Shown: one piece after another, positions 43,259-64,000 of the stretch
Position numbering within the stretch: position 1 is the first letter of the stretch
How the letters are laid out: each line of letters starts with the position of its first letter
Origin: Flectonema sp. DT1601
Taxonomy: Eukaryota
NCBI GenBank assembly: GCA_964019425.1
Contig: OZ025781.1
Coordinates: 1,736,001-1,800,000 of the forward strand
Direction: 5' to 3'
Length of the DNA stretch: 64,000 bases
The notes under the pieces: model-generated
Database searches by the model: none
What the model saw: the letters and a program-made list of their open reading frames with translations, nothing else
Told to the model about the DNA's origin: nothing
Translations under genes and position numbers: made by a program

Positions 43259-43339
43259 CAAAATTCGGATTCCAGAAAAAAAAAATTTTTTTTTTTTGAC
43301 CTTTTTTTTTTTGACTTTCTGATACTAAATTATCGACGG

Positions 43340-43795: not shown

Positions 43796-44108
43796 CTAAG
43801 TTGCCTGAAAGGCAAGAACAAAAAAACTACTCTCATCTGAAGAAAACATAATACACAAAGAACACACATACAAGTACATCGCATCGCTTGCTGAACCTCC
43901 TGAGCGAAAGCAAGTCGGGTATCTCTCGCAGGTTTGCGAACCTGTGTTTGTAACTGTAAAAAATGTCTCACAAATTACCCTCATCTGTTATATCTGTCAA
44001 TTATAAATAACAATTTTAAAATCATTTTTTACTTTGAAGAACAAGAAACAAACAATCAACTCACTACCTTCTTTATGACTATTCATGCAAGTGTTTGATT
44101 TAATGGTG

Positions 44109-44115
44109 AAAAAAA
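44109..44115 (-). terminator. Pol III T-run terminator of tRNA-Glu
   Basis: T7 on the minus strand, 1 nt after the discriminator base. Confidence 0.8.
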
Positions 44116-44116
44116 G

Positions 44117-44188
44117 TTCCTCCTCTGGGGTTCGAACCCAGGTCGCCTGGGTGAAAGCCAGGTATACTAACCACTGTACTAAAGAGGA
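44117..44188 (-). tRNA. tRNA-Glu: tRNA-Glu(TTC)
   Basis: TCCTCTTTAGTACAGTGGTTAGTATACCTGGCTTTCACCCAGGCGACCTGGGTTCGAACCCCAGAGGAGGAA folds as a cloverleaf, with anticodon arm CCTGG-CTTTCAC-CCAGG and T-loop TTCGAAC. Confidence 0.96.
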
Positions 44189-44439
44189 CATATTACTTTT
44201 CTTTTTTTTTTTTTTTTTTTTTTTTTTGGTTACACTCGTCTGTGCTTCCAGACTCTTTGTTTTTGTTCTTTTCACTTCTTTGTTTTGTCTTTCTTTTATA
44301 CTTTCTTTTGGTTTAAGTCTGACAAATTGGAAAACACGGGAAACATAGGTAGGCTCCGCCTGAGGACGTAAGAAGAGCGGCAACGGGAAAAAATAAATGG
44401 TCACGCGTCCTTGAAATTGGACACACGAAGCTAATTCGG

Positions 44440-44659
44440 TTACCATTCCTACCATCGATAAGGAAAAACAAAGAATCGAGCATATAACTAGAGCGGTGGT
44501 CAAAGACCACTTGAACAGCCCGAAGGCCTGCCCTCAAGAGAAATTTATAAGGAGAATAGGAGAAAAAGGAGACAGGAGTGTTGGAAGAGACACTGCGACA
44601 ACACCGAAGGTGATGTGCAGTTACCCAACCAGGAGATGATTGATAATGATGAAAATACT
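44440..44659. repeat. 220-bp non-terminal direct repeat, 3' UTR copy
   Basis: Identical by eye to 50180-50399 (offset 5740 bp). Confidence 0.97.
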
Positions 44660-44687
44660 AAATATTGATAAAACACTTAAATGGCGA

Positions 44688-47600
44688 CTACGTGTCACCT
44701 ACACAATTCCAAAGTCTCAGGTTGGATGCTTGTTCCATCCACCTGATCAACATCGCTACTGAAGGAAGCCAGCTGGTGGCAAAGATTGAGCCAAGACTGG
44801 CAGGAATGCCGTTGATGAGGATTAGATCACTTGATCGGTCCCATTTGCCTGTCAATGTAGAAAAGCCAAGGATTTCATATCTGGCTGCATCGAGTTTCTG
44901 TGATGGACAGCCTACGAGTAGGTGGAGTTGGTTGGATGGAGCGCTATGGCAGAATGGACATTTGATGGCTTTCCGCCAGTTTTGCATCAGTGGATGACAC
45001 CCCGTTCTAAAATTCGCAATTCTGATTTCATCGCTCCTTTTCATGTCGGGAGGATATTTTATCGCGGCACCTTTGACGGTGTTTTTATAGCAAGTGTAAC
45101 CAATTCTGTTCCAAATGTCCTTCGTGATCCCCCTCCTCACTCGGGATTTGTGATAGAAGAAGGATCCTCGGATTGGGATTTGAGGGAGGTATCTGTTGTG
45201 AGCCGATTTCTTAGCAAGTTCATCAACTTCGTCGTGTGCTTCTATCCCCATATGAGAAGGGATGAATTGAAGATGTACTTTCATACCGCAGTTCCGTAGG
45301 TTCTCGAGGATGCCGAGGGATCTGGTGTTTCTCTGTTTACACCTGCCACCCTTCAACTCGTCCAACAATGATTTTGAGTCGGTATAGATTCTGACTGACT
45401 TAGTTAGCCCGTCTTTCTGTACCTTCCAGTTTAAGTAGTTTGCCGCATTTTTCAAGGCATGTTGCTCAGTTCTGTAGCTGCAATCCGCACGCACTAATCT
45501 GGTCGCATGAGCACGTTTCTTTCCGTCTCGTGACCTAGCAATGAGAGCCGCGCCTGACGCATTCGAAGAGTATGAACCGTCACAGTTGATCACCATGTCC
45601 ACCGGAGGAAGTGTCGCGTTGTAGGTAAGGAATTTCTCCCTGTCCACTGCGGGATCAGGGGATTTTGTAAAACCGCAGCTGTTGCTGATTTGAACATTGT
45701 CCGAAGCAATCCAAGGTTTGATAGAGTCAGGTTGAACGATCCCCACACTTTCTAGTTGACCTTCAGAACGGGGAATGAGGCCACCCCAGAAGCTTCGAGG
45801 CGATGCGAGTGAGTTGGTGTCCGGCACCCAGGTCATGGCTTTGTACCTGAAATAGGCAATTTTAGTCTGCTTTTCGATTTGTCTTTTAAACGGTAAGATG
45901 TCGGCTTCCCAAAGGAGCAACTCCCTCGGAGTACATCTGCTGCATCCTGTTACGAGTCTCGCTATTTTTCTCATCTCGAAGTCGATAGCATCCGTTTTAT
46001 GCTGGTTGAGCAACCAACCAAAGCTGTCCAGTGCATAGGAAATCCTCGCTGTCACGTACAAGTTTTTAACCATCTTTAGGGTCTTGTAGTCCAATTCATA
46101 TGGCTGGAGGCACTGCAGAAGGGAGATCCCTTTCTTCAGTTCGTCGTGTATTTTCTCTAACTGTTTATCAAACCTGAGCCTGTTATCAATGTAAACACCC
46201 AGATATTTCACTGAGTCCGTGATCGGCAGTAGGAAGGCAATTTTAATTTTCGCTTTGACATTCATCTCGTCGTGGATGTTCAACATCAGTAAATCTTCTA
46301 ATTCTTGTTGAGTCCTGATGGGTTTCCCCTCTACTTCGAGGATCGTTTCACCACTCAGTAAAGTGGGCCTTGTCGTCGTCGTGTTGATCACGCTGTCTAG
46401 ATCAAAATAGTCAATATCTAACGAACGTACTTCCAGTGATTTTGAGAATAAGAGTTCGCGGTCGCTAGTATCAGTCAGGGTTACTTCTTTCGATTGAATA
46501 TCCATTTTCAGAGCGCAAGTCTTGGAGACTGAAAGTGCCATGTCATTATCACGGCACCACTTGTCAACGATGTCAAGTATTCGTTGAGCGTTTGAGATTG
46601 CTTCGTCCATGGTCGAGCCAAATACTGCACAAGCGGTGTCGTCTGCATACAGTGCGGTCAAAGTCGTTTCCTTCTCTTGTGAGAGAATCTTACACAGATC
46701 GTCAACATATATTAAATAGAGTAGTGGGCCTAAGATTGATCCTTGAGGCACTCCTTTTGACAGCGTACGAAACTTACTGAAATGTCCATTTGCATCAACT
46801 CTGACCTTCCTATTGGTTAGAAAGTCCGTTATCCATCGAACGATGAAGGTTGGGATGCCCATTCTTTGTAGTTTTGAAAGTAAAATTCGATGGTTAATCC
46901 TATCGAAGGCTGCTGTGAAATCGAATGACAAGAAGACTGACCTCCTCCCCTTCGTGTGGTTGTTTACCATGGCGTCCACCAGAATTGTGATTTGTTCGCA
47001 GGTATTTCTGCCCCGTCTGAAGCCAGCTTGAATCGGACTGAGTGCTGAGTTTTCGGTAAGCCAATGCATGAGCCTGTCGTACACCAACCTCTCAGCCAGT
47101 TTGCCAACAACCGAAGTGAGTGTGATTGGTCTGTAGCTTTTAATATCGTTCCGCGGTTTGCCCGACTTGAACATCGGTTTGATTAACCCCTGTTTCCAAA
47201 GATATGGAACATTGGAGGATCTCCACGAAGAATTGATCACCTTTAATAAACAGTCAACTGCCTTCTGAGATAAGTTCTTAAGCATTTCGTTGTGAATACC
47301 GTCAGGGCCTGCTGCTTTGCGAGGCTTCAGGTTTTTAATTGCTGCTGATATCTCGGTATCTGTGAAGTCACAACAGATGTCCAATTCCAAGTCTTCTTTC
47401 TTCAATGAAGGGGCTTCGAGTTTAGCAGCATCCCCATCGGCCACAGAGAGGTCCAGAAATGCTGCAGGTAAATCGTTCTCAGATATATTTGATACGCTGA
47501 TGTCCTTACCAGCGTCCTGTTGGAGTTCTTTAATCTTCTTGAAGGCGAAGTTAAAGTTGTTCCCCTTCCTCAGTTGGTCTTTCAGGTGACTACCTTTTGA

Positions 47601-48668
47601 TTTTATAGATTCAGGTGAAGAGGTCTTCCACTTACGTCGGCGCTTGCCCTTAAATAAGATTCTCCTCCGCACGTTCCTCGCAGCTACTTCATGTATTATG
47701 TTATTTAATAATCCAACATTACCAGTGGCATCATCCGAGAACTTAGCCCTATCAATTCTTCTATCAAGTTGCTGTCTGAAAGCACTCCAGTTTGTAGATT
47801 TGAAATCCCAGACAGTTCGTTTCCTTGCTCCAACTGTTGCTTGAGAGAGGTGAGCCATTGTGTCGAAGATAGCGAGTAGAGGTCGATGATCCGAGTTATG
47901 TTTACTGTCTTCATTTATGATTGAAAATTCTTCTAATACAATTGATCCTTTAAAGAATATAACGTCAGGTGAGGTACCACCGCCAGGAATGTCGTGTTTG
48001 GGCCGAGTTATTTGACCAGGTCTGTTTGCTACGAGAACGTCATTGCGATCCGCCCAATTAAATAATTCTTTACCAGATTTGGTTGTCCTGGTAGACCAGA
48101 CGAGGTTGTGTGCGTTGAAGTCGCCCGCAATAATAGACTTCGTTGTGATCGGAAGATCATCTTCTCTAATGATACACCCAGGGGGAGCGTAAACGTTAAT
48201 AACATTGACACCACCAACATTCAGCATCATAGCTTCGATACCGCTTGTTCTCGAAAACAATTCTTCATCACTGATTCCTTGTGAGAAGCATCTCTTTGCC
48301 ATTATTATAATGCCACCACCTTTTGTATTTCTGTCCTTCCTATATGTATAATAGCCAGGGTGCGAAATGTGTTCCTTCGACCAGGTTTCCTGTAAGCACA
48401 GTACATCCGGCGAGTAGTGAGAAAGGAGTCTTTGAATATAAGACCCCTTCTGACTTATCGATCTACAGTTCCAGCTCAACACTGAGAGTAACGAATTTTC
48501 AGGTCCAGGGTTGCGTTCAACGTCGCCTGCCAGCAGTAATAAACTTCGGGTCAGTTCTTTTTCAGTTTGAGAGATAGTCGGTGCTGTTACAGTAGTCGGC
48601 TTCACCAGAACTTTACTATGATGTGAGTCATTTTTAGAATTTGAAGTTGACGGTGTTCGTTTGTCAAG
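44688..48668 (-). CDS. Retrotransposon ORF2: 2A peptide, AP endonuclease, reverse transcriptase, RNase H, CCHC knuckle
   Basis: 2A: LLLLAGDVERNPGP. APE: SWNCRS, LCLQET, AGDFNAH, SDHRP. RT: KAAGPDGI, YRPITLTS, GVPQGSILGP, YADD, KYLGV. RNase H: NCDGS, YRTE, YTDSKS, PSHMG...DELAK. Knuckle: CPFC...HLLVGC. The frame is open back to the ORF1 stop, with no ATG before the endonuclease. Confidence 0.95.
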   Translation of the reverse strand, partial: LDKRTPSTSNSKNDSHHSKVLVKPTTVTAPTISQTEKELTRSLLLLAGDVERNPGPENSLLSVLSWNCRSISQKGSYIQRLLSHYSPDVLCLQETWSKEHISHPGYYTYRKDRNTKGGGIIIMAKRCFSQGISDEELFSRTSGIEAMMLNVGGVNVINVYAPPGCIIREDDLPITTKSIIAGDFNAHNLVWSTRTTKSGKELFNWADRNDVLVANRPGQITRPKHDIPGGGTSPDVIFFKGSIVLEEFSIINEDSKHNSDHRPLLAIFDTMAHLSQATVGARKRTVWDFKSTNWSAFRQQLDRRIDRAKFSDDATGNVGLLNNIIHEVAARNVRRRILFKGKRRRKWKTSSPESIKSKGSHLKDQLRKGNNFNFAFKKIKELQQDAGKDISVSNISENDLPAAFLDLSVADGDAAKLEAPSLKKEDLELDICCDFTDTEISAAIKNLKPRKAAGPDGIHNEMLKNLSQKAVDCLLKVINSSWRSSNVPYLWKQGLIKPMFKSGKPRNDIKSYRPITLTSVVGKLAERLVYDRLMHWLTENSALSPIQAGFRRGRNTCEQITILVDAMVNNHTKGRRSVFLSFDFTAAFDRINHRILLSKLQRMGIPTFIVRWITDFLTNRKVRVDANGHFSKFRTLSKGVPQGSILGPLLYLIYVDDLCKILSQEKETTLTALYADDTACAVFGSTMDEAISNAQRILDIVDKWCRDNDMALSVSKTCALKMDIQSKEVTLTDTSDRELLFSKSLEVRSLDIDYFDLDSVINTTTTRPTLLSGETILEVEGKPIRTQQELEDLLMLNIHDEMNVKAKIKIAFLLPITDSVKYLGVYIDNRLRFDKQLEKIHDELKKGISLLQCLQPYELDYKTLKMVKNLYVTARISYALDSFGWLLNQHKTDAIDFEMRKIARLVTGCSRCTPRELLLWEADILPFKRQIEKQTKIAYFRYKAMTWVPDTNSLASPRSFWGGLIPRSEGQLESVGIVQPDSIKPWIASDNVQISNSCGFTKSPDPAVDREKFLTYNATLPPVDMVINCDGSYSSNASGAALIARSRDGKKRAHATRLVRADCSYRTEQHALKNAANYLNWKVQKDGLTKSVRIYTDSKSLLDELKGGRCKQRNTRSLGILENLRNCGMKVHLQFIPSHMGIEAHDEVDELAKKSAHNRYLPQIPIRGSFFYHKSRVRRGITKDIWNRIGYTCYKNTVKGAAIKYPPDMKRSDEIRIANFRTGCHPLMQNWRKAIKCPFCHSAPSNQLHLLVGCPSQKLDAARYEILGFSTLTGKWDRSSDLILINGIPASLGSIFATSWLPSVAMLIRWMEQASNLRLWNCVGDT

Positions 48669-50093
48669 TCAGTTTGAATTATCCATTTCCACATCAGTCG
48701 TTTCAGTAGTATCGGTTGGTTCTTCAGCACAGTGTCGCTTCAGATCACCAGATATAACTGGACCCTTGCCCGGGTTGAAGGTCGGCCCCAATTTGACCGG
48801 CTTTTCTCTTTTAGTTTCCATGTTGATTACAAGGTACGCATCTTTACCCATGTCGACGAAGCTTGGTGATGGAACCGATTCAGAGATTGCAATTAACGTT
48901 TTGTTGCCTCCCTTATGAAAACTAGCCACAATTGTGTGACTCCACTTGTATGCGTGCAACAGGTGATCGCTGATCTGTTGCGTCGTGAACTTCTTAATAG
49001 CCAGTGATTTAATTATAAAACGCTGACCAGTCGGCAGTGCGGGTTTCAGAGAATCCCCGAGTGATTCTCTCACTTTTTGAGTAAACCCGGGTTGAACTTT
49101 CAGCCCAAAGCACTCTCGGAACTTCGTGATGTAGAAGCTACCTTTGATTGCTGAAAGAACTGAAAGTTTGCCCAGCACCGCTTTGAAGCCCAAGTCCTTA
49201 ACGAACTGAACTGTGTTCCAAGAGTCTTGGCCATTAGACCAAGATGGGTTTCTGATGAATAGATCTCTCTTCTCACTGGAGGTGTCGCTGTTGTTGTATT
49301 CCAGAATTTCAGAAATTCTGAAGTTTGGCACACGGATCGCCATAGATGTGTGCATATCGCATTTTTTAAATCCGAAGGGCGATGTCTTCAGCTCCCACTT
49401 TTTAATTAATTCTTTCACCTTAGTGGTGAGAGTGCTCTCTGCTGATTTACTCCAGTCTTGTATGAATAGAACTGGGTCCGGCTGTGGTGGCTCGATGGCG
49501 TCTTCTCTTGCGGCAGTGAAATCTTTGCCACAAATCGGGGTGACAAATACCCTACGAATGACGCAGGTTCCGCACTTCTTTACGACTGGAAGTGCGACTG
49601 GGACTGTTGTTTTAAACAGTTTAGACTTTGAGATGGCAGTCCAGTCGCCCTTCGTTCGTGTTTGCTTCAGTGCTTCATAATCAGCCTTTGAGCTGATGAG
49701 CACGAGTCCGTCCGCGTTGTTTTTGGAGGCATCGATTGCTTCTGAGAATTTAAGCGTAGGTGTTGCTTTAGCCCACGCTGCGTGAATGTACCACTCTGGC
49801 AGAGTGGGTTTCTTGTTGTTGGTAGTTGGCGTCGGGCCTCCATCATTTCCATCCCTCACCGTGCTCGCCGCTTCCTGTCGTTGTCCCCCGGACTCCTTCC
49901 CCTTCCTCTCTTGCTCTGTCGTCTTTCTCTTTGACGACTCTCCTTGTTTCTCTCCGGAGTCCTCCGTCAGCTGCTCCAGCACTCTCATCGTGAGAGTCAA
50001 AACCCTCCTTCTCTTTTCTTCTCCTGCTAGTCCTTTCTCCACTTCTTGTACTAACCGCATCACATCCAAAAGCAGCTCCTTACAACTGCTCAT
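48669..50093 (-). CDS. Retrotransposon ORF1 (474 aa from the first ATG; function unknown, putative RNA-binding/chaperone)
   Basis: Long basic ORF directly upstream of and in frame with ORF2, with a helical N-terminus. An AG (ctgacag) lies shortly upstream of the ATG at 50093. Confidence 0.8.
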   Translation of the reverse strand: MSSCKELLLDVMRLVQEVEKGLAGEEKRRRVLTLTMRVLEQLTEDSGEKQGESSKRKTTEQERKGKESGGQRQEAASTVRDGNDGGPTPTTNNKKPTLPEWYIHAAWAKATPTLKFSEAIDASKNNADGLVLISSKADYEALKQTRTKGDWTAISKSKLFKTTVPVALPVVKKCGTCVIRRVFVTPICGKDFTAAREDAIEPPQPDPVLFIQDWSKSAESTLTTKVKELIKKWELKTSPFGFKKCDMHTSMAIRVPNFRISEILEYNNSDTSSEKRDLFIRNPSWSNGQDSWNTVQFVKDLGFKAVLGKLSVLSAIKGSFYITKFRECFGLKVQPGFTQKVRESLGDSLKPALPTGQRFIIKSLAIKKFTTQQISDHLLHAYKWSHTIVASFHKGGNKTLIAISESVPSPSFVDMGKDAYLVINMETKREKPVKLGPTFNPGKGPVISGDLKRHCAEEPTDTTETTDVEMDNSN

Positions 50094-50179
50094 TATAGTT
50101 TTATGTCTGTCAGAAAACCCGCACAAAATCGACTCTCACCAGGTAATGGTAGGAAATCAATAAAGTACAGAAGAATTTT

Positions 50180-50399
50180 TTACCATTCCTACCATCGATA
50201 AGGAAAAACAAAGAATCGAGCATATAACTAGAGCGGTGGTCAAAGACCACTTGAACAGCCCGAAGGCCTGCCCTCAAGAGAAATTTATAAGGAGAATAGG
50301 AGAAAAAGGAGACAGGAGTGTTGGAAGAGACACTGCGACAACACCGAAGGTGATGTGCAGTTACCCAACCAGGAGATGATTGATAATGATGAAAATACT
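50180..50399. repeat. 220-bp non-terminal direct repeat, 5' UTR copy
   Basis: Identical by eye to 44440-44659. Confidence 0.97.
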
Positions 50400-51027
50400 G
50401 GAAAGGAGATACCGCAAGCAGCGATCAAGAATCCGGTGAAACACCCGACGAAGGGATGGTGTGATAGGTGTGGAGAGCGGATCGCGAAGGGAACGCGGGT
50501 AGTCATGTGCGTGAAGTGTGACTACGCTGAATGCTGCGGATTGTTGGAGAGATCGCGGCGTGGGAAAGAGAAGAGGAAAAGGAAATCACGGGGATCGCGA
50601 TCGAAAAACGATGCCATGTGAGAAGCATGAAACGGAAAGTGAATGAACGGAAAAAATTAAATGTAAAGAAGTGAACTTGTAAAAAATGTAAAGAAGCAAA
50701 CATGTTAAAAGAAAAATGAAAAAAAAAAAAAAAAGAAGAGTGAAAAGGAAGACAGAGTTGTATGTAAACTGTATGTAAATGTAAGAAGAAAGAAAAAACA
50801 CGCTGGAAGTGGGAGTGCAACCATCAGCGCAAACACAACCACAAATATTGTTTTTTTTTTCCTTTTTCTTTTCTTCGCTTCGGCGACAGATATGGTAGGA
50901 CCTAGAAAACCGGCCCAAAACTTGTGTTGCAGTTTATCTTTTTAGCGCACACTCATGTAACATAAGGATCGCTGGTTCCGAGGGTTTGCTCTCCTGCCAT
51001 ACTTGCCTCTCACCTCCCTCAAAAAAA

Positions 51028-51066
51028 AACCAACGATTCTAAAGCTACAGTTTCTGTACTTTATTG
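51028..51066 (+). other. Complete 39-nt spliced-leader exon in processed (trans-spliced) form
   Basis: AACCAACGATTCTAAAGCTACAGTTTCTGTACTTTATTG has the kinetoplastid/diplonemid SL length and the conserved ACAGTTTCTGTACTWTATTG 3' half. It is not followed by an SL-intron GT donor. Confidence 0.93.
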
Positions 51067-54000
51067 TTTTTTCCCTCCCTCGCCCCATCCCCGTCAGCGA
51101 GTAGGAAAGCGCAGCTAGGAATTTTTCCACGCAAGCGGATCCCACAACCCGACCACCCTTCCCCACGCTCACCCCATCCACCCTCCCCCACCCCAACAAA
51201 AGAAGAAAACGGCGGCAGCCACGTGACACACTCGTGTTCGTGTAGCGAAGCGTTTCGGCGACTTCGAAGACGACGACGACGACGACGACGTAGAAGAGAC
51301 GGTGTATGTGACTGACCTTCTTCTTCCTTATTTATCTATTTACTTTTGTTAATTACTTCCTCTTAATTTCATTCCTCTCTTAGATTGTTGTTTATTTGCT
51401 TATTTATTTGTTTGTTTATTTGTCTGTTTATCTGTCTGTATATTCTGTTACTATCTGTTATCTTGTTACATTTATCTGTATATTAGAGTACATTTTTGTT
51501 ATTGTTAAATTAAAACATCTTCTTCACAGTTTTTTCCCTCCCTCGCCCCATCCCCGTCAGCGAGTAGGAAAGCGCAGCTAGGAATTTTTCCACGCAAGCG
51601 GATCCCACAACCCGACCACCCTTCCCCACGCTCACCCCATCCACCCTCCCCCACCCCAACAAAAGAAGAAAACGGCGGCAGCCACGTGACACACTCGTGT
51701 TCGTGTAGCGAAGCGTTTCGGCGACTTCGAAGACGACGACGACGACGACGACGTAGAAGAGACGGTGTATGTGACTGACCTTCTTCTTCCTTATTTATCT
51801 ATTTACTTTTGTTAATTACTTCCTCTTAATTTCATTCCTCTCTTAGATTGTTGTTTATTTGCTTATTTATTTGTTTGTTTATTTGTCTGTTTATCTGTCT
51901 GTATATTCTGTTACTATCTGTTATCTTGTTACATTTATCTGTATATTAGAGTACATTTTTGTTATTGTTAAATTAAAACATCTTCTTCACAGTTTTTTCC
52001 CTCCCTCGCCCCATCCCCGTCAGCGAGTAGGAAAGCGCAGCTAGGAATTTTTCCACGCAAGCGGATCCCACAACCCGACCACCCTTCCCCACGCTCACCC
52101 CATCCACCCTCCCCCACCCCAACAAAAGAAGAAAACGGCGGCAGCCACGTGACACACTCGTGTTCGTGTAGCGAAGCGTTTCGGCGACTTCGAAGACGAC
52201 GACGACGACGACGACGTAGAAGAGACGGTGTATGTGACTGACCTTCTTCTTCCTTATTTATCTATTTACTTTTGTTAATTACTTCCTCTTAATTTCATTC
52301 CTCTCTTAGATTGTTGTTTATTTGCTTATTTATTTGTTTGTTTATTTGTCTGTTTATCTGTCTGTATATTCTGTTACTATCTGTTATCTTGTTACATTTA
52401 TCTGTATATTAGAGTACATTTTTGTTATTGTTAAATTAAAACATCTTCTTCACAGTTTTTTCCCTCCCTCGCCCCATCCCCGTCAGCGAGTAGGAAAGCG
52501 CAGCTAGGAATTTTTCCACGCAAGCGGATCCCACAACCCGACCACCCTTCCCCACGCTCACCCCATCCACCCTCCCCCACCCCAACAAAAGAAGAAAACG
52601 GCGGCAGCCACGTGACACACTCGTGTTCGTGTAGCGAAGCGTTTCGGCGACTTCGAAGACGACGACGACGACGACGACGTAGAAGAGACGGTGTATGTGA
52701 CTGACCTTCTTCTTCCTTATTTATCTATTTACTTTTGTTAATTACTTCCTCTTAATTTCATTCCTCTCTTAGATTGTTGTTTATTTGCTTATTTATTTGT
52801 TTGTTTATTTGTCTGTTTATCTGTCTGTATATTCTGTTACTATCTGTTATCTTGTTACATTTATCTGTATATTAGAGTACATTTTTGTTATTGTTAAATT
52901 AAAACATCTTCTTCACAGTTTTTTCCCTCCCTCGCCCCATCCCCGTCAGCGAGTAGGAAAGCGCAGCTAGGAATTTTTCCACGCAAGCGGATCCCACAAC
53001 CCGACCACCCTTCCCCACGCTCACCCCATCCACCCTCCCCCACCCCAACAAAAGAAGAAAACGGCGGCAGCCACGTGACACACTCGTGTTCGTGTAGCGA
53101 AGCGTTTCGGCGACTTCGAAGACGACGACGACGACGACGACGTAGAAGAGACGGTGTATGTGACTGACCTTCTTCTTCCTTATTTATCTATTTACTTTTG
53201 TTAATTACTTCCTCTTAATTTCATTCCTCTCTTAGATTGTTGTTTATTTGCTTATTTATTTGTTTGTTTATTTGTCTGTTTATCTGTCTGTATATTCTGT
53301 TACTATCTGTTATCTTGTTACATTTATCTGTATATTAGAGTACATTTTTGTTATTGTTAAATTAAAACATCTTCTTCACAGTTTTTTCCCTCCCTCGCCC
53401 CATCCCCGTCAGCGAGTAGGAAAGCGCAGCTAGGAATTTTTCCACGCAAGCGGATCCCACAACCCGACCACCCTTCCCCACGCTCACCCCATCCACCCTC
53501 CCCCACCCCAACAAAAGAAGAAAACGGCGGCAGCCACGTGACACACTCGTGTTCGTGTAGCGAAGCGTTTCGGCGACTTCGAAGACGACGACGACGACGA
53601 CGACGTAGAAGAGACGGTGTATGTGACTGACCTTCTTCTTCCTTATTTATCTATTTACTTTTGTTAATTACTTCCTCTTAATTTCATTCCTCTCTTAGAT
53701 TGTTGTTTATTTGCTTATTTATTTGTTTGTTTATTTGTCTGTTTATCTGTCTGTATATTCTGTTACTATCTGTTATCTTGTTACATTTATCTGTATATTA
53801 GAGTACATTTTTGTTATTGTTAAATTAAAACATCTTCTTCACAGTTTTTTCCCTCCCTCGCCCCATCCCCGTCAGCGAGTAGGAAAGCGCAGCTAGGAAT
53901 TTTTCCACGCAAGCGGATCCCACAACCCGACCACCCTTCCCCACGCTCACCCCATCCACCCTCCCCCACCCCAACAAAAGAAGAAAACGGCGGCAGCCAC

Positions 54001-57000
54001 GTGACACACTCGTGTTCGTGTAGCGAAGCGTTTCGGCGACTTCGAAGACGACGACGACGACGACGACGTAGAAGAGACGGTGTATGTGACTGACCTTCTT
54101 CTTCCTTATTTATCTATTTACTTTTGTTAATTACTTCCTCTTAATTTCATTCCTCTCTTAGATTGTTGTTTATTTGCTTATTTATTTGTTTGTTTATTTG
54201 TCTGTTTATCTGTCTGTATATTCTGTTACTATCTGTTATCTTGTTACATTTATCTGTATATTAGAGTACATTTTTGTTATTGTTAAATTAAAACATCTTC
54301 TTCACAGTTTTTTCCCTCCCTCGCCCCATCCCCGTCAGCGAGTAGGAAAGCGCAGCTAGGAATTTTTCCACGCAAGCGGATCCCACAACCCGACCACCCT
54401 TCCCCACGCTCACCCCATCCACCCTCCCCCACCCCAACAAAAGAAGAAAACGGCGGCAGCCACGTGACACACTCGTGTTCGTGTAGCGAAGCGTTTCGGC
54501 GACTTCGAAGACGACGACGACGACGACGACGTAGAAGAGACGGTGTATGTGACTGACCTTCTTCTTCCTTATTTATCTATTTACTTTTGTTAATTACTTC
54601 CTCTTAATTTCATTCCTCTCTTAGATTGTTGTTTATTTGCTTATTTATTTGTTTGTTTATTTGTCTGTTTATCTGTCTGTATATTCTGTTACTATCTGTT
54701 ATCTTGTTACATTTATCTGTATATTAGAGTACATTTTTGTTATTGTTAAATTAAAACATCTTCTTCACAGTTTTTTCCCTCCCTCGCCCCATCCCCGTCA
54801 GCGAGTAGGAAAGCGCAGCTAGGAATTTTTCCACGCAAGCGGATCCCACAACCCGACCACCCTTCCCCACGCTCACCCCATCCACCCTCCCCCACCCCAA
54901 CAAAAGAAGAAAACGGCGGCAGCCACGTGACACACTCGTGTTCGTGTAGCGAAGCGTTTCGGCGACTTCGAAGACGACGACGACGACGACGACGTAGAAG
55001 AGACGGTGTATGTGACTGACCTTCTTCTTCCTTATTTATCTATTTACTTTTGTTAATTACTTCCTCTTAATTTCATTCCTCTCTTAGATTGTTGTTTATT
55101 TGCTTATTTATTTGTTTGTTTATTTGTCTGTTTATCTGTCTGTATATTCTGTTACTATCTGTTATCTTGTTACATTTATCTGTATATTAGAGTACATTTT
55201 TGTTATTGTTAAATTAAAACATCTTCTTCACAGTTTTTTCCCTCCCTCGCCCCATCCCCGTCAGCGAGTAGGAAAGCGCAGCTAGGAATTTTTCCACGCA
55301 AGCGGATCCCACAACCCGACCACCCTTCCCCACGCTCACCCCATCCACCCTCCCCCACCCCAACAAAAGAAGAAAACGGCGGCAGCCACGTGACACACTC
55401 GTGTTCGTGTAGCGAAGCGTTTCGGCGACTTCGAAGACGACGACGACGACGACGACGTAGAAGAGACGGTGTATGTGACTGACCTTCTTCTTCCTTATTT
55501 ATCTATTTACTTTTGTTAATTACTTCCTCTTAATTTCATTCCTCTCTTAGATTGTTGTTTATTTGCTTATTTATTTGTTTGTTTATTTGTCTGTTTATCT
55601 GTCTGTATATTCTGTTACTATCTGTTATCTTGTTACATTTATCTGTATATTAGAGTACATTTTTGTTATTGTTAAATTAAAACATCTTCTTCACAGTTTT
55701 TTCCCTCCCTCGCCCCATCCCCGTCAGCGAGTAGGAAAGCGCAGCTAGGAATTTTTCCACGCAAGCGGATCCCACAACCCGACCACCCTTCCCCACGCTC
55801 ACCCCATCCACCCTCCCCCACCCCAACAAAAGAAGAAAACGGCGGCAGCCACGTGACACACTCGTGTTCGTGTAGCGAAGCGTTTCGGCGACTTCGAAGA
55901 CGACGACGACGACGACGACGTAGAAGAGACGGTGTATGTGACTGACCTTCTTCTTCCTTATTTATCTATTTACTTTTGTTAATTACTTCCTCTTAATTTC
56001 ATTCCTCTCTTAGATTGTTGTTTATTTGCTTATTTATTTGTTTGTTTATTTGTCTGTTTATCTGTCTGTATATTCTGTTACTATCTGTTATCTTGTTACA
56101 TTTATCTGTATATTAGAGTACATTTTTGTTATTGTTAAATTAAAACATCTTCTTCACAGTTTTTTCCCTCCCTCGCCCCATCCCCGTCAGCGAGTAGGAA
56201 AGCGCAGCTAGGAATTTTTCCACGCAAGCGGATCCCACAACCCGACCACCCTTCCCCACGCTCACCCCATCCACCCTCCCCCACCCCAACAAAAGAAGAA
56301 AACGGCGGCAGCCACGTGACACACTCGTGTTCGTGTAGCGAAGCGTTTCGGCGACTTCGAAGACGACGACGACGACGACGACGTAGAAGAGACGGTGTAT
56401 GTGACTGACCTTCTTCTTCCTTATTTATCTATTTACTTTTGTTAATTACTTCCTCTTAATTTCATTCCTCTCTTAGATTGTTGTTTATTTGCTTATTTAT
56501 TTGTTTGTTTATTTGTCTGTTTATCTGTCTGTATATTCTGTTACTATCTGTTATCTTGTTACATTTATCTGTATATTAGAGTACATTTTTGTTATTGTTA
56601 AATTAAAACATCTTCTTCACAGTTTTTTCCCTCCCTCGCCCCATCCCCGTCAGCGAGTAGGAAAGCGCAGCTAGGAATTTTTCCACGCAAGCGGATCCCA
56701 CAACCCGACCACCCTTCCCCACGCTCACCCCATCCACCCTCCCCCACCCCAACAAAAGAAGAAAACGGCGGCAGCCACGTGACACACTCGTGTTCGTGTA
56801 GCGAAGCGTTTCGGCGACTTCGAAGACGACGACGACGACGACGACGTAGAAGAGACGGTGTATGTGACTGACCTTCTTCTTCCTTATTTATCTATTTACT
56901 TTTGTTAATTACTTCCTCTTAATTTCATTCCTCTCTTAGATTGTTGTTTATTTGCTTATTTATTTGTTTGTTTATTTGTCTGTTTATCTGTCTGTATATT

Positions 57001-60000
57001 CTGTTACTATCTGTTATCTTGTTACATTTATCTGTATATTAGAGTACATTTTTGTTATTGTTAAATTAAAACATCTTCTTCACAGTTTTTTCCCTCCCTC
57101 GCCCCATCCCCGTCAGCGAGTAGGAAAGCGCAGCTAGGAATTTTTCCACGCAAGCGGATCCCACAACCCGACCACCCTTCCCCACGCTCACCCCATCCAC
57201 CCTCCCCCACCCCAACAAAAGAAGAAAACGGCGGCAGCCACGTGACACACTCGTGTTCGTGTAGCGAAGCGTTTCGGCGACTTCGAAGACGACGACGACG
57301 ACGACGACGTAGAAGAGACGGTGTATGTGACTGACCTTCTTCTTCCTTATTTATCTATTTACTTTTGTTAATTACTTCCTCTTAATTTCATTCCTCTCTT
57401 AGATTGTTGTTTATTTGCTTATTTATTTGTTTGTTTATTTGTCTGTTTATCTGTCTGTATATTCTGTTACTATCTGTTATCTTGTTACATTTATCTGTAT
57501 ATTAGAGTACATTTTTGTTATTGTTAAATTAAAACATCTTCTTCACAGTTTTTTCCCTCCCTCGCCCCATCCCCGTCAGCGAGTAGGAAAGCGCAGCTAG
57601 GAATTTTTCCACGCAAGCGGATCCCACAACCCGACCACCCTTCCCCACGCTCACCCCATCCACCCTCCCCCACCCCAACAAAAGAAGAAAACGGCGGCAG
57701 CCACGTGACACACTCGTGTTCGTGTAGCGAAGCGTTTCGGCGACTTCGAAGACGACGACGACGACGACGACGTAGAAGAGACGGTGTATGTGACTGACCT
57801 TCTTCTTCCTTATTTATCTATTTACTTTTGTTAATTACTTCCTCTTAATTTCATTCCTCTCTTAGATTGTTGTTTATTTGCTTATTTATTTGTTTGTTTA
57901 TTTGTCTGTTTATCTGTCTGTATATTCTGTTACTATCTGTTATCTTGTTACATTTATCTGTATATTAGAGTACATTTTTGTTATTGTTAAATTAAAACAT
58001 CTTCTTCACAGTTTTTTCCCTCCCTCGCCCCATCCCCGTCAGCGAGTAGGAAAGCGCAGCTAGGAATTTTTCCACGCAAGCGGATCCCACAACCCGACCA
58101 CCCTTCCCCACGCTCACCCCATCCACCCTCCCCCACCCCAACAAAAGAAGAAAACGGCGGCAGCCACGTGACACACTCGTGTTCGTGTAGCGAAGCGTTT
58201 CGGCGACTTCGAAGACGACGACGACGACGACGACGTAGAAGAGACGGTGTATGTGACTGACCTTCTTCTTCCTTATTTATCTATTTACTTTTGTTAATTA
58301 CTTCCTCTTAATTTCATTCCTCTCTTAGATTGTTGTTTATTTGCTTATTTATTTGTTTGTTTATTTGTCTGTTTATCTGTCTGTATATTCTGTTACTATC
58401 TGTTATCTTGTTACATTTATCTGTATATTAGAGTACATTTTTGTTATTGTTAAATTAAAACATCTTCTTCACAGTTTTTTCCCTCCCTCGCCCCATCCCC
58501 GTCAGCGAGTAGGAAAGCGCAGCTAGGAATTTTTCCACGCAAGCGGATCCCACAACCCGACCACCCTTCCCCACGCTCACCCCATCCACCCTCCCCCACC
58601 CCAACAAAAGAAGAAAACGGCGGCAGCCACGTGACACACTCGTGTTCGTGTAGCGAAGCGTTTCGGCGACTTCGAAGACGACGACGACGACGACGACGTA
58701 GAAGAGACGGTGTATGTGACTGACCTTCTTCTTCCTTATTTATCTATTTACTTTTGTTAATTACTTCCTCTTAATTTCATTCCTCTCTTAGATTGTTGTT
58801 TATTTGCTTATTTATTTGTTTGTTTATTTGTCTGTTTATCTGTCTGTATATTCTGTTACTATCTGTTATCTTGTTACATTTATCTGTATATTAGAGTACA
58901 TTTTTGTTATTGTTAAATTAAAACATCTTCTTCACAGTTTTTTCCCTCCCTCGCCCCATCCCCGTCAGCGAGTAGGAAAGCGCAGCTAGGAATTTTTCCA
59001 CGCAAGCGGATCCCACAACCCGACCACCCTTCCCCACGCTCACCCCATCCACCCTCCCCCACCCCAACAAAAGAAGAAAACGGCGGCAGCCACGTGACAC
59101 ACTCGTGTTCGTGTAGCGAAGCGTTTCGGCGACTTCGAAGACGACGACGACGACGACGACGTAGAAGAGACGGTGTATGTGACTGACCTTCTTCTTCCTT
59201 ATTTATCTATTTACTTTTGTTAATTACTTCCTCTTAATTTCATTCCTCTCTTAGATTGTTGTTTATTTGCTTATTTATTTGTTTGTTTATTTGTCTGTTT
59301 ATCTGTCTGTATATTCTGTTACTATCTGTTATCTTGTTACATTTATCTGTATATTAGAGTACATTTTTGTTATTGTTAAATTAAAACATCTTCTTCACAG
59401 TTTTTTCCCTCCCTCGCCCCATCCCCGTCAGCGAGTAGGAAAGCGCAGCTAGGAATTTTTCCACGCAAGCGGATCCCACAACCCGACCACCCTTCCCCAC
59501 GCTCACCCCATCCACCCTCCCCCACCCCAACAAAAGAAGAAAACGGCGGCAGCCACGTGACACACTCGTGTTCGTGTAGCGAAGCGTTTCGGCGACTTCG
59601 AAGACGACGACGACGACGACGACGTAGAAGAGACGGTGTATGTGACTGACCTTCTTCTTCCTTATTTATCTATTTACTTTTGTTAATTACTTCCTCTTAA
59701 TTTCATTCCTCTCTTAGATTGTTGTTTATTTGCTTATTTATTTGTTTGTTTATTTGTCTGTTTATCTGTCTGTATATTCTGTTACTATCTGTTATCTTGT
59801 TACATTTATCTGTATATTAGAGTACATTTTTGTTATTGTTAAATTAAAACATCTTCTTCACAGTTTTTTCCCTCCCTCGCCCCATCCCCGTCAGCGAGTA
59901 GGAAAGCGCAGCTAGGAATTTTTCCACGCAAGCGGATCCCACAACCCGACCACCCTTCCCCACGCTCACCCCATCCACCCTCCCCCACCCCAACAAAAGA

Positions 60001-63000
60001 AGAAAACGGCGGCAGCCACGTGACACACTCGTGTTCGTGTAGCGAAGCGTTTCGGCGACTTCGAAGACGACGACGACGACGACGACGTAGAAGAGACGGT
60101 GTATGTGACTGACCTTCTTCTTCCTTATTTATCTATTTACTTTTGTTAATTACTTCCTCTTAATTTCATTCCTCTCTTAGATTGTTGTTTATTTGCTTAT
60201 TTATTTGTTTGTTTATTTGTCTGTTTATCTGTCTGTATATTCTGTTACTATCTGTTATCTTGTTACATTTATCTGTATATTAGAGTACATTTTTGTTATT
60301 GTTAAATTAAAACATCTTCTTCACAGTTTTTTCCCTCCCTCGCCCCATCCCCGTCAGCGAGTAGGAAAGCGCAGCTAGGAATTTTTCCACGCAAGCGGAT
60401 CCCACAACCCGACCACCCTTCCCCACGCTCACCCCATCCACCCTCCCCCACCCCAACAAAAGAAGAAAACGGCGGCAGCCACGTGACACACTCGTGTTCG
60501 TGTAGCGAAGCGTTTCGGCGACTTCGAAGACGACGACGACGACGACGACGTAGAAGAGACGGTGTATGTGACTGACCTTCTTCTTCCTTATTTATCTATT
60601 TACTTTTGTTAATTACTTCCTCTTAATTTCATTCCTCTCTTAGATTGTTGTTTATTTGCTTATTTATTTGTTTGTTTATTTGTCTGTTTATCTGTCTGTA
60701 TATTCTGTTACTATCTGTTATCTTGTTACATTTATCTGTATATTAGAGTACATTTTTGTTATTGTTAAATTAAAACATCTTCTTCACAGTTTTTTCCCTC
60801 CCTCGCCCCATCCCCGTCAGCGAGTAGGAAAGCGCAGCTAGGAATTTTTCCACGCAAGCGGATCCCACAACCCGACCACCCTTCCCCACGCTCACCCCAT
60901 CCACCCTCCCCCACCCCAACAAAAGAAGAAAACGGCGGCAGCCACGTGACACACTCGTGTTCGTGTAGCGAAGCGTTTCGGCGACTTCGAAGACGACGAC
61001 GACGACGACGACGTAGAAGAGACGGTGTATGTGACTGACCTTCTTCTTCCTTATTTATCTATTTACTTTTGTTAATTACTTCCTCTTAATTTCATTCCTC
61101 TCTTAGATTGTTGTTTATTTGCTTATTTATTTGTTTGTTTATTTGTCTGTTTATCTGTCTGTATATTCTGTTACTATCTGTTATCTTGTTACATTTATCT
61201 GTATATTAGAGTACATTTTTGTTATTGTTAAATTAAAACATCTTCTTCACAGTTTTTTCCCTCCCTCGCCCCATCCCCGTCAGCGAGTAGGAAAGCGCAG
61301 CTAGGAATTTTTCCACGCAAGCGGATCCCACAACCCGACCACCCTTCCCCACGCTCACCCCATCCACCCTCCCCCACCCCAACAAAAGAAGAAAACGGCG
61401 GCAGCCACGTGACACACTCGTGTTCGTGTAGCGAAGCGTTTCGGCGACTTCGAAGACGACGACGACGACGACGACGTAGAAGAGACGGTGTATGTGACTG
61501 ACCTTCTTCTTCCTTATTTATCTATTTACTTTTGTTAATTACTTCCTCTTAATTTCATTCCTCTCTTAGATTGTTGTTTATTTGCTTATTTATTTGTTTG
61601 TTTATTTGTCTGTTTATCTGTCTGTATATTCTGTTACTATCTGTTATCTTGTTACATTTATCTGTATATTAGAGTACATTTTTGTTATTGTTAAATTAAA
61701 ACATCTTCTTCACAGTTTTTTCCCTCCCTCGCCCCATCCCCGTCAGCGAGTAGGAAAGCGCAGCTAGGAATTTTTCCACGCAAGCGGATCCCACAACCCG
61801 ACCACCCTTCCCCACGCTCACCCCATCCACCCTCCCCCACCCCAACAAAAGAAGAAAACGGCGGCAGCCACGTGACACACTCGTGTTCGTGTAGCGAAGC
61901 GTTTCGGCGACTTCGAAGACGACGACGACGACGACGACGTAGAAGAGACGGTGTATGTGACTGACCTTCTTCTTCCTTATTTATCTATTTACTTTTGTTA
62001 ATTACTTCCTCTTAATTTCATTCCTCTCTTAGATTGTTGTTTATTTGCTTATTTATTTGTTTGTTTATTTGTCTGTTTATCTGTCTGTATATTCTGTTAC
62101 TATCTGTTATCTTGTTACATTTATCTGTATATTAGAGTACATTTTTGTTATTGTTAAATTAAAACATCTTCTTCACAGTTTTTTCCCTCCCTCGCCCCAT
62201 CCCCGTCAGCGAGTAGGAAAGCGCAGCTAGGAATTTTTCCACGCAAGCGGATCCCACAACCCGACCACCCTTCCCCACGCTCACCCCATCCACCCTCCCC
62301 CACCCCAACAAAAGAAGAAAACGGCGGCAGCCACGTGACACACTCGTGTTCGTGTAGCGAAGCGTTTCGGCGACTTCGAAGACGACGACGACGACGACGA
62401 CGTAGAAGAGACGGTGTATGTGACTGACCTTCTTCTTCCTTATTTATCTATTTACTTTTGTTAATTACTTCCTCTTAATTTCATTCCTCTCTTAGATTGT
62501 TGTTTATTTGCTTATTTATTTGTTTGTTTATTTGTCTGTTTATCTGTCTGTATATTCTGTTACTATCTGTTATCTTGTTATATTTATCTGTATATTAGAG
62601 TACATTTTTGTTATTGTTAAATTAAAACATCTTCTTCACAGTTTTTTCCCTCCCTCGCCCCATCCCCGTCAGCGAGTAGGAAAGCGCAGCTAGGAATTTT
62701 TCCACGCAAGCGGATCCCACAACCCGACCACCCTTCCCCACGCTCACCCCATCCACCCTCCCCCACCCCAACAAAAGAAGAAAACGGCGGCAGCCACGTG
62801 ACACACTCGTGTTCGTGTAGCGAAGCGTTTCGGCGACTTCGAAGACGACGACGACGACGACGACGTAGAAGAGACGGTGTATGTGACTGACCTTCTTCTT
62901 CCTTATTTATCTATTTACTTTTGTTAATTACTTCCTCTTAATTTCATTCCTCTCTTAGATTGTTGTTTATTTGCTTATTTATTTGTTTGTTTATTTGTCT

Positions 63001-64000
63001 GTTTATCTGTCTGTATATTCTGTTACTATCTGTTATCTTGTTACATTTATCTGTATATTAGAGTACATTTTTGTTATTGTTAAATTAAAACATCTTCTTC
63101 ACAGTTTTTTCCCTCCCTCGCCCCATCCCCGTCAGCGAGTAGGAAAGCGCAGCTAGGAATTTTTCCACGCAAGCGGATCCCACAACCCGACCACCCTTCC
63201 CCACGCTCACCCCATCCACCCTCCCCCACCCCAACAAAAGAAGAAAACGGCGGCAGCCACGTGACACACTCGTGTTCGTGTAGCGAAGCGTTTCGGCGAC
63301 TTCGAAGACGACGACGACGACGACGACGTAGAAGAGACGGTGTATGTGACTGACCTTCTTCTTCCTTATTTATCTATTTACTTTTGTTAATTACTTCCTC
63401 TTAATTTCATTCCTCTCTTAGATTGTTGTTTATTTGCTTATTTATTTGTTTGTTTATTTGTCTGTTTATCTGTCTGTATATTCTGTTACTATCTGTTATC
63501 TTGTTACATTTATCTGTATATTAGAGTACATTTTTGTTATTGTTAAATTAAAACATCTTCTTCACAGTTTTTTCCCTCCCTCGCCCCATCCCCGTCAGCG
63601 AGTAGGAAAGCGCAGCTAGGAATTTTTCCACGCAAGCGGATCCCACAACCCGACCACCCTTCCCCACGCTCACCCCATCCACCCTCCCCCACCCCAACAA
63701 AAGAAGAAAACGGCGGCAGCCACGTGACACACTCGTGTTCGTGTAGCGAAGCGTTTCGGCGACTTCGAAGACGACGACGACGACGACGACGTAGAAGAGA
63801 CGGTGTATGTGACTGACCTTCTTCTTCCTTATTTATCTATTTACTTTTGTTAATTACTTCCTCTTAATTTCATTCCTCTCTTAGATTGTTGTTTATTTGC
63901 TTATTTATTTGTTTGTTTATTTGTCTGTTTATCTGTCTGTATATTCTGTTACTATCTGTTATCTTGTTACATTTATCTGTATATTAGAGTACATTTTTGT
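51067..64000. repeat. Tandem array of a 463-bp unit: 27 full copies plus one partial, running off the window
   Basis: The ORF track recurs every 463 bp. Units start at 51067+463k, after cacAG. The only variant I noticed is C>T at 62581. Confidence 0.98.

Follow-up and report, generated by a model that had tools for sequence, protein, structure and literature searches.

A multicopy LINE with a spliced-leader piece at its likely 5′ end and probable positional insertion upstream of tRNA genes

We found an intact two-ORF non-LTR retrotransposon beside a tRNA gene in the 64,000-nucleotide stretch of DNA analyzed here (the window), in the order ORF1, UGA, 2A-APE-RT-RNase H, poly(A), 13 bp, tRNA-Glu. 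We consider it quite probable that this copy belongs to a multicopy LINE that inserts positionally, 13 to 19 nt upstream of tRNA genes and with its poly(A) facing the tRNA, from an RNA template whose 5′ end is the host spliced leader (SL). All of the features listed in the original prediction for this DNA were found where it had placed them.

The anatomy of this copy was read directly from the DNA. The element and its target gene point in the same direction, on the minus strand. The target, tRNA-Glu(TTC) (44116 to 44188; ARAGORN and Rfam RF00005, 65 bits), is the 1 tRNA gene within the whole 64-kb window. Beyond its +1 lie a 13-nt spacer (44189 to 44201), a 26-nt poly(A) tail (44202 to 44227), and a 432-nt 3′ module (44228 to 44659) made up of a 220-bp block (44440 to 44659) and a terminal segment, all on the minus strand. 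The spacer is 9 nt long if a G-interrupted A run is counted as part of the poly(A) tail. The 3′ module is ~99% common to a second subfamily from an identical boundary, which starts at YAG, and it folds better than shuffled sequences (z = −2.6). APE and RT lie in one ORF, the element ends in poly(A), and it has multiple copies, some truncated at the 5′ end (P0091, P0113, and P0151), as in APE-type non-LTR elements. The candidates for a target-site duplication were A runs or a possible 4-nt match only; the outer 5′ junction is perhaps beyond the window. An Rfam search of positions 43000 to 52500 (E ≤ 1) returned the tRNA and one chance-level match only, with no match to a Pr77/HDV-like ribozyme, and a scan of metagenome_contigs with the 3′-end DNA gave no match. 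The four runs used consist of low-depth contigs that span neither the tRNA junction nor the SL-leader junction.

ORF1 (474 aa; 48672 to 50093, minus strand) is conserved, with 41 to 44% identity to its subfamily 2 and Flectonema homologues, and it has no match in Pfam or Atlas. An ORF1 profile search of genome_contigs gave no match, and a lone metagenome match of 38 aa (L001) was taken as chance. A structure model with two putative RRM-like domains (best Z, 7.4) is a lead only, because the model is of low confidence (pLDDT 50). ORF1 ends at a UGA (48669 to 48671, minus strand) preceded by an Asn codon, and Asn is the last ORF1 residue in 7 of the 9 homologues that reach the tail. We rejected both a reassignment of TGA (3 of 11 host ORFs terminate at TGA) and a chance nonsense mutation (long ORF1 members stop at the same residue within each subfamily). 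No stable stem-loop was found 3′ of the UGA (−10.3 versus −11.2 ± 2.6 kcal/mol), and none of 11 relative matches had a long fused ORF1-ORF2 reading frame. One decayed relative suggests an ORF2 in another frame. Translation of ORF2 by reinitiation is as likely as translation by UGA readthrough.

ORF2 extends for 1,326 codons past the ORF1 stop, in the same frame as ORF1 (44688 to 48668, minus strand), and has no in-frame AUG ahead of the APE domain. Its order is linker, 2A, APE, RT, RNase H, and a C-terminal Cys/His motif. APE and RT were identified by Pfam. The acidic and His residues of RNase H are conserved in the alignment; Pfam assigned RNase H in a relative (P0005) and gave no RNase H match in the window copy, and a PDB search with the ORF2 C terminus gave weak RNase H matches only (E = 0.05). 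The 2A (StopGo) peptide (48501 to 48560, minus strand) ends in GDVERNPG-P, with GDVERNPGP as ORF2 residues 48 to 56, and is found in subfamily 2 too. The predicted 2A is a canonical motif, directly before APE.

The element is multicopy, with two subfamilies and a relative in Flectonema neradi, where both ORFs occur in one transcript group. The ORF2 clusters have 37 and 101 members and the ORF1 clusters 18, 13, and 20; subfamily 2 is present on 9 of the 21 listed subfamily 1 contigs. In an RT tree of 33 rows, the family had support of 100/99 and joined P0006, which carries 2A, PHD, and RNase H, at 92/82. The family and P0006 lay apart from the rows named as plant and fungal proteins, in a tree with no named ingi sequence among its rows.

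Other copies were read as gene-caller peptides, not DNA (26 representatives of 45 member sequences). Their targets come from stray gene calls that run through the poly(A), and the offsets carry an error of about 3 nt. In 11 of 22 testable tails, a strict A-box placed the tRNA +1 13 to 19 nt downstream on the same strand (allowed offset, 9 to 24 nt), compared to 1.7 tails expected (binomial P = 2e-7); three further tails were too short. A full cloverleaf was fitted in six tails, beating all 300 shuffles and all 300 background peptides, and the anticodons differ. As a positive control, the fit recovered the window's tRNA at the correct offset. The B-box lies 49 to 52 nt from +1 in 9 of 9 tails with a B-box and a fitted start. 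P0135 and P0137 have A- and B-boxes and a cloverleaf that is not significant, and P0120 and P0132 are individually weak (9 to 20 of 300). P0151, from a separate ORF1-profile search, has poly(A), 15 nt, a tRNA-like sequence, and then a 5′-truncated ORF1. The junction set covers 23 distinct contigs. Six of the 22 tails were scored as neither tRNA nor SL (P0119, P0128, P0131, P0133, P0138, and P0139). An A-box lies 13 and 10 nt past a second A-rich run in P0131 and P0138; this observation is post hoc and was not counted.

The spacers of the other copies share no common peptide motif, and no 5-mer match was found between the tails and the tRNA part of the query. At the peptide level, the distance to many tRNA isotypes is nearly fixed, with no common target sequence. 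The 11 A-box tails and the six differing cloverleaves point to targeting that is likely positional. We concluded that other copies likely lie 13 to 19 bases upstream of many different tRNA genes, stacked head to tail. The predicted tRNA association recurs, on these peptide readings, in half of the testable tails.

The last 15 of the 39 nt of the SL were read directly, in sense, at 50158 to 50172 (minus strand), separated from ORF1 by a 64-nt leader (50094 to 50157, minus strand). This piece was absent from the feature list of the original prediction. Four tails of other copies continue into an SL piece, and three of them continue into the next element's leader; P0099, P0123, and P0127 have poly(A), SL piece, and leader, with the same junction as in the window. 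In P0130, 62 nt are compatible with a perfect 8-nt SL repeat. Judging from these peptides, copies appear to stack in tandem, and the SL pieces at their junctions bear out the proposed link to trans-splicing. We concluded that the sense SL piece is likely the true 5′ end of the element. It stands in the same place in both subfamilies and could be an inherited relic that is not added in each cycle, since the genomic SL junction lacks an AG.

Upstream of the SL piece is an exact copy of the 220-bp block (50180 to 50399, minus strand, identical to 44440 to 44659), with A6 at its end (50176 to 50181). A scan of genome_contigs with the block gave no match. A 628-nt segment (50400 to 51027) follows, whose plus strand ends in A7, and a Cys-rich ORF remnant lies on the plus strand at 50232 to 50621. 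Ten ORFs of the window, drawn from the 628-nt segment and the junctions, had no exact-sequence counterpart in the protein collection. Next, on the plus strand, a complete 39-nt SL exon (51028 to 51066) takes the place of the acceptor, ...CACAG, of the first unit of a noncoding 463-bp tandem array (51067 to 64000), which runs beyond the window edge. The array has 27.9 units, each with one polypyrimidine-AG acceptor, and 26 of the 27 complete units are identical. Runs X1, X3, and X4 contain the array as circular tandem unitigs. They also contain an exon identical to that at 51028 to 51066 with a GT donor behind it, which marks an SL RNA gene. One 151-nt contig of run X3 covers 50905 to 51054, reaching 27 nt into the SL, below the 31-letter bar for bridging. 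Rfam gave no match for the unit, whose fold is unremarkable (z = +1.3), and a scan of viral_contigs with the array gave no match. We rejected an SL RNA gene array, as the SL is present once only, and a circularized intron or exon, as the AG is kept and a separate GT is absent. We concluded that the SL-capped array is real and probably a neighbor of the element and that the upstream 220-bp block is likely a neighboring or second-template RNA end.

The head-to-head join may quite possibly have arisen when twin priming inverted a single long SL-capped co-transcript made up of SL, array, 628-nt segment, block, and element, or when a second priming event took place on SL-capped RNA of a preexisting flanking array. 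Only the array is at issue in this reading, which can stand beside the explanation that we favor. It accounts for the position of the complete SL, precisely where the inversion occurs and fused to the unit at its acceptor, and the join is flanked by an 8-nt direct repeat. However, the RNA would have to stay unprocessed over 13 kb despite an acceptor in each unit, or a deletion invisible here would be required, and an independent retrocopy directed at a divergent tRNA past position 64000 explains the join just as well.

An improbable account of the 5′ end is HeT-A-like terminal redundancy, in which the SL piece would be a long-standing relic inside the element, transcription would begin in the 3′ module of the copy upstream, and part of that module would accompany each new copy as a pseudo-LTR. 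This account fits an SL piece that occupies one position in the two subfamilies, at a junction lacking AG, and it fits the several pyrimidine-rich acceptors in the module, one of them 17 nt ahead of the SL piece here. The leader also pairs with the block end (−25.7 kcal/mol, equalled by 2 of 300 shuffles), and the HeT-A 3′ UTR drives a downstream element according to the available part of that report (PMC5537684). In contrast, the sequence before the SL piece varies by copy, in tail length and in reiterated 8- to 9-nt SL units, as for a template end, and the pairing is not evidently conserved because the subfamily 2 leader differs.

In the original prediction, the array, antisense SL, 220-bp block, and 3′ segment were intrinsic modules like A, B, and C of TRE5-A, with replication through sense and antisense RNA. 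The exact 220-bp repeat favors this idea, as does the TRE5-A layout, AB-ORF1/ORF2-BC in the available part of its description (PMC3159450), and the contig from an independent run touches the 628-nt/SL junction. We nevertheless regard it as very improbable. The sense SL piece marking the element's 5′ end sits between the block and ORF1, leaving the block outside. Six 5′ junctions of other copies (P0099, P0123, P0127, P0113, P0091, and P0151) are a neighbor's poly(A) tail, a truncated neighbor, or tRNA. The array has the opposite strand orientation and recurs as a tandem repeat in X1, X3, and X4, and nothing in the peptides read links it to other copies. That the tRNA neighborhood reflects chance or survival bias, or that the junctions are assembly artifacts, is scarcely credible: no long read spans the junctions and consensus polishing may account for the identity of 26 of 27 units, but about half of the testable 3′ ends fall in a 7-nt window on one strand with one tRNA per 64 kb, and array, SL exon, module, and ORF2 pieces recur in four other studies.

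For the positionally inserting, SL-ended LINE, we infer all steps of insertion as follows. The element, with no promoter of its own in view, would be co-transcribed and then trans-spliced and polyadenylated. An RNP of ORF1p (RRM-like) and ORF2p would be tethered to the Pol III initiation complex, by analogy through a tethering factor there, and would nick near the transcription start. Target-primed reverse transcription would halt about 15 nt into the SL, and occasional RT slippage on the SL would generate 8-nt SL repeats. A later insertion at the same tRNA would separate the tRNA from the tail of the older copy, giving tandems; in these, processing signals for each next copy may come from the 3′ module of the copy upstream. 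ORF2 would be expressed via a signal at the Asn-stop, by reinitiation or, with much the same probability, by readthrough, and far less probably from a separate mRNA; 2A would then set the N terminus of ORF2p. The 5′ block, 628-nt segment, and SL-capped array would be neighbors or second templates that were taken up at this single 5′ junction. A more specific joint scheme is doubtful. There, a promoterless, ribozyme-free element would have its 5′ end renewed in each generation by SL trans-splicing, with the TG of the genomic SL piece as the acceptor; RT stutter would yield telomerase-like 8-nt repeats, UGA readthrough and 2A would produce ORF2p, the element would home to Pol III start sites, and the 5′ junction would be closed by priming on SL-capped RNAs, such as a 463-nt array transcript.

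Dictyostelium purpureum NLTR-A (two-ORF) and Polysphondylium pallidum NLTR-B are likewise APE-RT-RNase H non-LTR elements found upstream of tRNA genes; they insert 2 to 6 bp and 39 to 64 bp upstream, in amoebozoan hosts, and, compared by description, the available parts of the reports describe no 2A or SL (PMC5006619, PMC5911963). From similarly partial accounts, Dictyostelium TRE5-A shares position-specific insertion upstream of many tRNA genes (PMC3159450, PMC5911963) and an internal 3′ UTR stretch that is repeated upstream, as in this copy (PMC3159450). In those accounts, it belongs to the L1 clade, lacks RNase H, and has a −1 frameshift (PMC3159450, PMC5911963), whereas here RNase H residues are present and ORF2 is in frame behind a UGA. 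TRE5 lies about 40 to 54 bp upstream, TRE5-A at about 50 bp, with its 5′ end toward the tRNA, as excerpted (PMC5911963), whereas here the distance is 13 to 19 nt and the poly(A) faces the tRNA. Trypanosome ingi and L1Tc share 2A immediately before APE and a euglenozoan host (PMC3708506, PMC3894237), as well as the APE-RT-RNase H order, their RNase H being given in the part of PMC5006619 available. In contrast, the Ingi clade is reported without ORF1 (PMC3708506), and in the present family ORF1 is conserved, the 5′ end likely derives from the SL, and insertion is probably directed to tRNA genes. L1Tc has unspliced transcripts from Pr77 and an HDV-like ribozyme in the available portions of its descriptions (PMC3708506, PMC3894237).

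Drosophila HeT-A and TART also form head-to-tail arrays with nonterminal repeats, and a copy may make use of the 3′ UTR of the one upstream; they are telomeric, with no SL and no tRNA targeting in the part of the source at hand (PMC5537684). In dinoflagellate relict-SL retrogenes, a genomic 15-nt 3′ SL piece similarly marks passage through RNA, and TG has been proposed as a noncanonical acceptor; those are passive host retrogenes, however, and the unit reiterated in their tandem relics is the entire piece instead of 8 nt (PMC12014239). Ty3 and DGLT-A use the same insertion window, with DGLT-A at 13 to 33 bp (mean, 15) and Ty3 directed by TFIIIB to the start site of Pol III, in the excerpts available (PMC5006619, PMC5911963). 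They are LTR elements with integrase, whereas this family is a poly(A)-tailed APE element. In TRE5-A as partially described, the B- and A-modules are within the 5′ UTR, whereas the repeat here is outside the SL-marked 5′ end. The proposal of an independently evolved, tRNA-targeting, RNase H-bearing element oriented opposite to TRE5-A is supported.

Position-specific targeting of tRNA genes is documented in yeasts (LTR elements) and in dictyostelid amoebae. The family described here would be a new, independent origin of such targeting, likely in a diplonemid. This Discoba case, in which a poly(A) element uses the Ty3/DGLT-A window with a different enzyme and in the orientation opposite to TRE5, would add a further independent origin, and the family would test TFIIIB tethering as a general route. 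From the 5′ SL piece, one can examine directly how a LINE persists without Pr77 in a genome with polycistronic transcription and trans-splicing, and how RT completes the first strand. Translation of a non-LTR ORF2 can be tested compactly on the conserved Asn-stop with 2A behind it. Being intact and recently active, and having a narrow insertion window at tRNA genes, the family is also a candidate safe-harbor insertion tool for diplonemids.

Every feature named in the original prediction was present in the window: tRNA, poly(A), 220-bp repeat, ORF1-TGA-ORF2, 2A, APE/RT/RNase H, array, and spliced-leader (SL) exon. tRNA prediction placed tRNA-Glu(TTC) at 44116-44188 on the minus strand, 13 nt beyond the element's 26-nt poly(A), and the 220-bp repeat is exact (44440-44659 and 50180-50399). 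ORF1 (474 aa) is closed by a single TGA; ORF2 continues without a change of frame, and a canonical 2A motif stands directly ahead of APE. Pfam matched APE and RT in ORF2, and the RNase H catalytic positions and C-terminal Cys/His motif are kept in a four-sequence alignment. A structural model of ORF1, of low confidence, contains a pair of RRM-like domains (Z about 7). Within window positions 1-44000, each of the 11 host ORFs of at least 200 aa lies on the plus strand, and tRNA-Glu therefore closes a gene cluster. The host is likely a diplonemid, because its closest named relative is Flectonema neradi and its SL resembles that of diplonemids. A perfect 17-bp tandem repeat (10.5 copies, 22559-22736) lies between host genes. 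The stretch 43315-43714 recurs with small indels in sequencing runs X1 and X4, and a 151-codon minus-strand open frame (43340-43795) overlaps it.

Other copies were probed by protein search with a stray ORF spanning the 3′ end and poly(A), yielding 26 clusters (45 members), of which the representatives alone were read. Removal of P0142, which ends before the tail (the peptide stretch past the poly(A)), and of P0143, the window's own, and addition of P0099 gave 25 tails; 3 were too short for testing, and 22 were tested. Flanks were read from peptides, with an error of about 3 nt. The A-box and B-box consensus motifs were applied to the tails. A strict A-box was codon compatible in 11 of the 22 tails, with tRNA +1 at 13 to 19 nt past the last Lys codon (peptide level), versus 1.7 expected from background peptides (allowed window, 9 to 24; P = 2e-7). 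The predicted tRNA association likely extends, at the peptide level, to other copies. Cloverleaf scores of six tails with different anticodons (P0122, P0126, P0134, P0136, P0140, and P0141) exceeded every one of 300 shuffles and likewise of 300 background peptides. P0121 (1 and 3 of 300) and P0129 (2 and 1 of 300) were near-misses, P0120 and P0132 were weak, and P0135 and P0137 had both boxes without a significant cloverleaf. As a positive control, the score recovered the window's tRNA at the correct offset. Nine tails had both a B-box and a fitted start, and in every one the B-box spacing was 49 to 52 nt. None of the tails had a 5-mer in common with the query's tRNA portion. In P0151, from a separate ORF1-profile search, a spacer of 15 nt separates poly(A) from tRNA-like sequence, which has a relaxed A-box with a B-box 51 nt further and is followed by 5′-truncated ORF1. 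Six of the 22 tested tails were assigned to neither tRNA nor SL.

Some tails carried further features. P0135 and P0137 represent distinct insertions ahead of one shared tRNA-like gene, which may be a repeat derived from a tRNA or a different kind of Pol III gene. P0139 and P0151 contain 5′-truncated copies about 20 to 50 nt downstream of a tRNA, a placement consistent with insertions within tRNA clusters. Poly(A) tails, as in P0127, P0131, and P0138, are often G-interrupted or apparently duplicated.

The predicted antisense SL exon was upheld. This 39-nt exon (51028-51066) takes the place of the array unit 1 acceptor, and we identify it as the SL because three of the four runs contain an identical exon with GT directly after it. 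Overlooked was a second place in the window with the last 12 nt of the SL: a sense 15-nt piece (50172-50158) that comes after the 5′ block plus a run of six A's and abuts the ORF1 leader (50094-50157). Four tails also enter the SL piece; in P0099, P0123, and P0127, a leader follows, and P0130 carries 62 nt that would fit perfect reiteration of SL nt 25 to 32, with unassigned sequence beyond. Since the SL marks the RNA 5′ end, the block upstream of the sense piece, proposed earlier as 5′ UTR, is probably not part of the element RNA's 5′ UTR. AG is absent at the genomic SL-leader junction, and the piece could therefore be an inherited relic. Dinoflagellate data suggest that TG can serve as acceptor (PMC12014239).

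A short A run closes the upstream block, whose most plausible reading is as the terminus of an RNA, either a neighbour or a second template, sharing the 3′ module. Over 44427-44659, an X4 contig of subfamily 2 (the window copy belonging to subfamily 1) differs from the window copy by 2 substitutions and 1 gap, with many differences from 44663 on; the common module therefore begins at the 220-bp block start. That start lies at a YAG in all three contexts, the subfamily-2 context being rebuilt by hand from the X4 comparison. A 129-codon plus-strand open frame (50232-50621), antisense through the block, crosses the block boundary unbroken into a Cys-rich motif (CxxC...CxxC..C); it has no Pfam match and may be decayed coding sequence that supplied the captured 3′ module. 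The leader's first 30 nt (50128-50157) are complementary to the block end (44440-44480) on the minus strand (-25.7 kcal/mol; 2/300 shuffles), a possible 5′-3′ pairing that shows no clear conservation in subfamily 2.

The array comprises 27.9 units, 26 of the 27 complete ones identical. It is present, with small differences from the window, as tandem circular contigs in X1, X3, and X4, and is therefore a genuine repeat; a 151-nt X3 contig (50905-51054) touches the SL join without formally bridging it. Three origins can be considered for it: SL-capped RNA from a flanking array already in place may have served for priming, a twin-priming inversion may have occurred, or the array may be a retrocopy of its own, directed at a divergent tRNA. 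Under no such origin would the array be an A-module. Modular ends plus array as one system, although all its parts are present, is unlikely.

ORF2 clusters on long ENA contigs have 37 members (99% identity) and 101 members (67%), and ORF1 clusters have 18, 13, and 20; up to 15 members of each were listed individually. Among those listed, subfamily 2 also occurs on 9 of 21 subfamily-1 contigs. An F. neradi transcript protein is an ORF2 relative (48% identity), with an ORF1 partner from the same transcript group. An X3 contig over 44237-44309 fuses the terminal segment directly to sequence resembling the ORF2 C terminus, which suggests an internally deleted, non-autonomous copy. P0146 and P0152 are distant ORF1 homologues that lack the terminal Asn, which suggests that similar ORF1 proteins form a wider family.

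Of the double recoding proposed, the 2A half stood, the motif being found in both subfamilies. In F. neradi, the ORF2 call begins with a Met where APE starts, near the point at which 2A would release ORF2p; of the seven long ORF2s in subfamily 2, five have calls beginning within APE. Between UGA and APE there is no in-frame AUG; CUG and GUG occupy codons 21 and 22. Asn is the final residue in 7 of 9 ORF1 homologues extending to the ORF1 tail and makes up 4% of those tails, an enrichment that points to a signal at the ORF1 stop. Two results count against conserved UGA readthrough: none of 11 ORF1-profile matches was a long ORF1-ORF2 fusion, and decayed P0153 connects the ORF1 tail to 2A-APE. 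That join is most simply explained by one indel, with ORF2 in another frame there, a weak argument since Asn-stop triples that would fit are not uncommon. No stem-loop follows the UGA. Among known elements, SART1 uses termination-reinitiation, which has also been proposed for LINE-1 (PMC5972666); for Tj1, an LTR element, the proposal is stop suppression (PMC5911963).

We propose that the element would be co-transcribed, receive the SL, and be polyadenylated; its RNP would be anchored to the Pol III initiation complex, where TPRT would copy element RNA at the tRNA target. Reverse transcription would halt about 15 nt into the SL, slipping now and then, and repeated insertions between old tail and tRNA would give tandems.

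Among known elements, TRE5-A inserts about 50 bp upstream of tRNAs with its 5′ end facing the tRNA (PMC3159450), whereas here poly(A) faces the tRNA at 13 nt; Ingi-clade elements share the 2A but are reported to lack ORF1 (PMC3708506, PMC3894237). A 33-row RT tree, which has no named Ingi row, groups the family with a 2A-PHD-RNase H element with moderate support. Tandem promotion is described for HeT-A (PMC5537684), and Dewa lies in tRNA-Leu spacers (PMC3706591). No tRNA-targeting or SL-ended diplonemid element was found in the literature searched, which excluded Repbase and subscription journals. The available part of the D. papillatum genome paper names LINE, SLACS, and Tbingi-like proteins but gives no target sites for them, and its repeat supplement may bear on this; that of a trypanosomatid mobilome survey (PMC12278014) does not mention tRNA targeting. 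Targeting of sites upstream of tRNAs is already known from other elements; here it likely arose independently, together with a 5′ end derived from the SL and stacking of copies in tandem.
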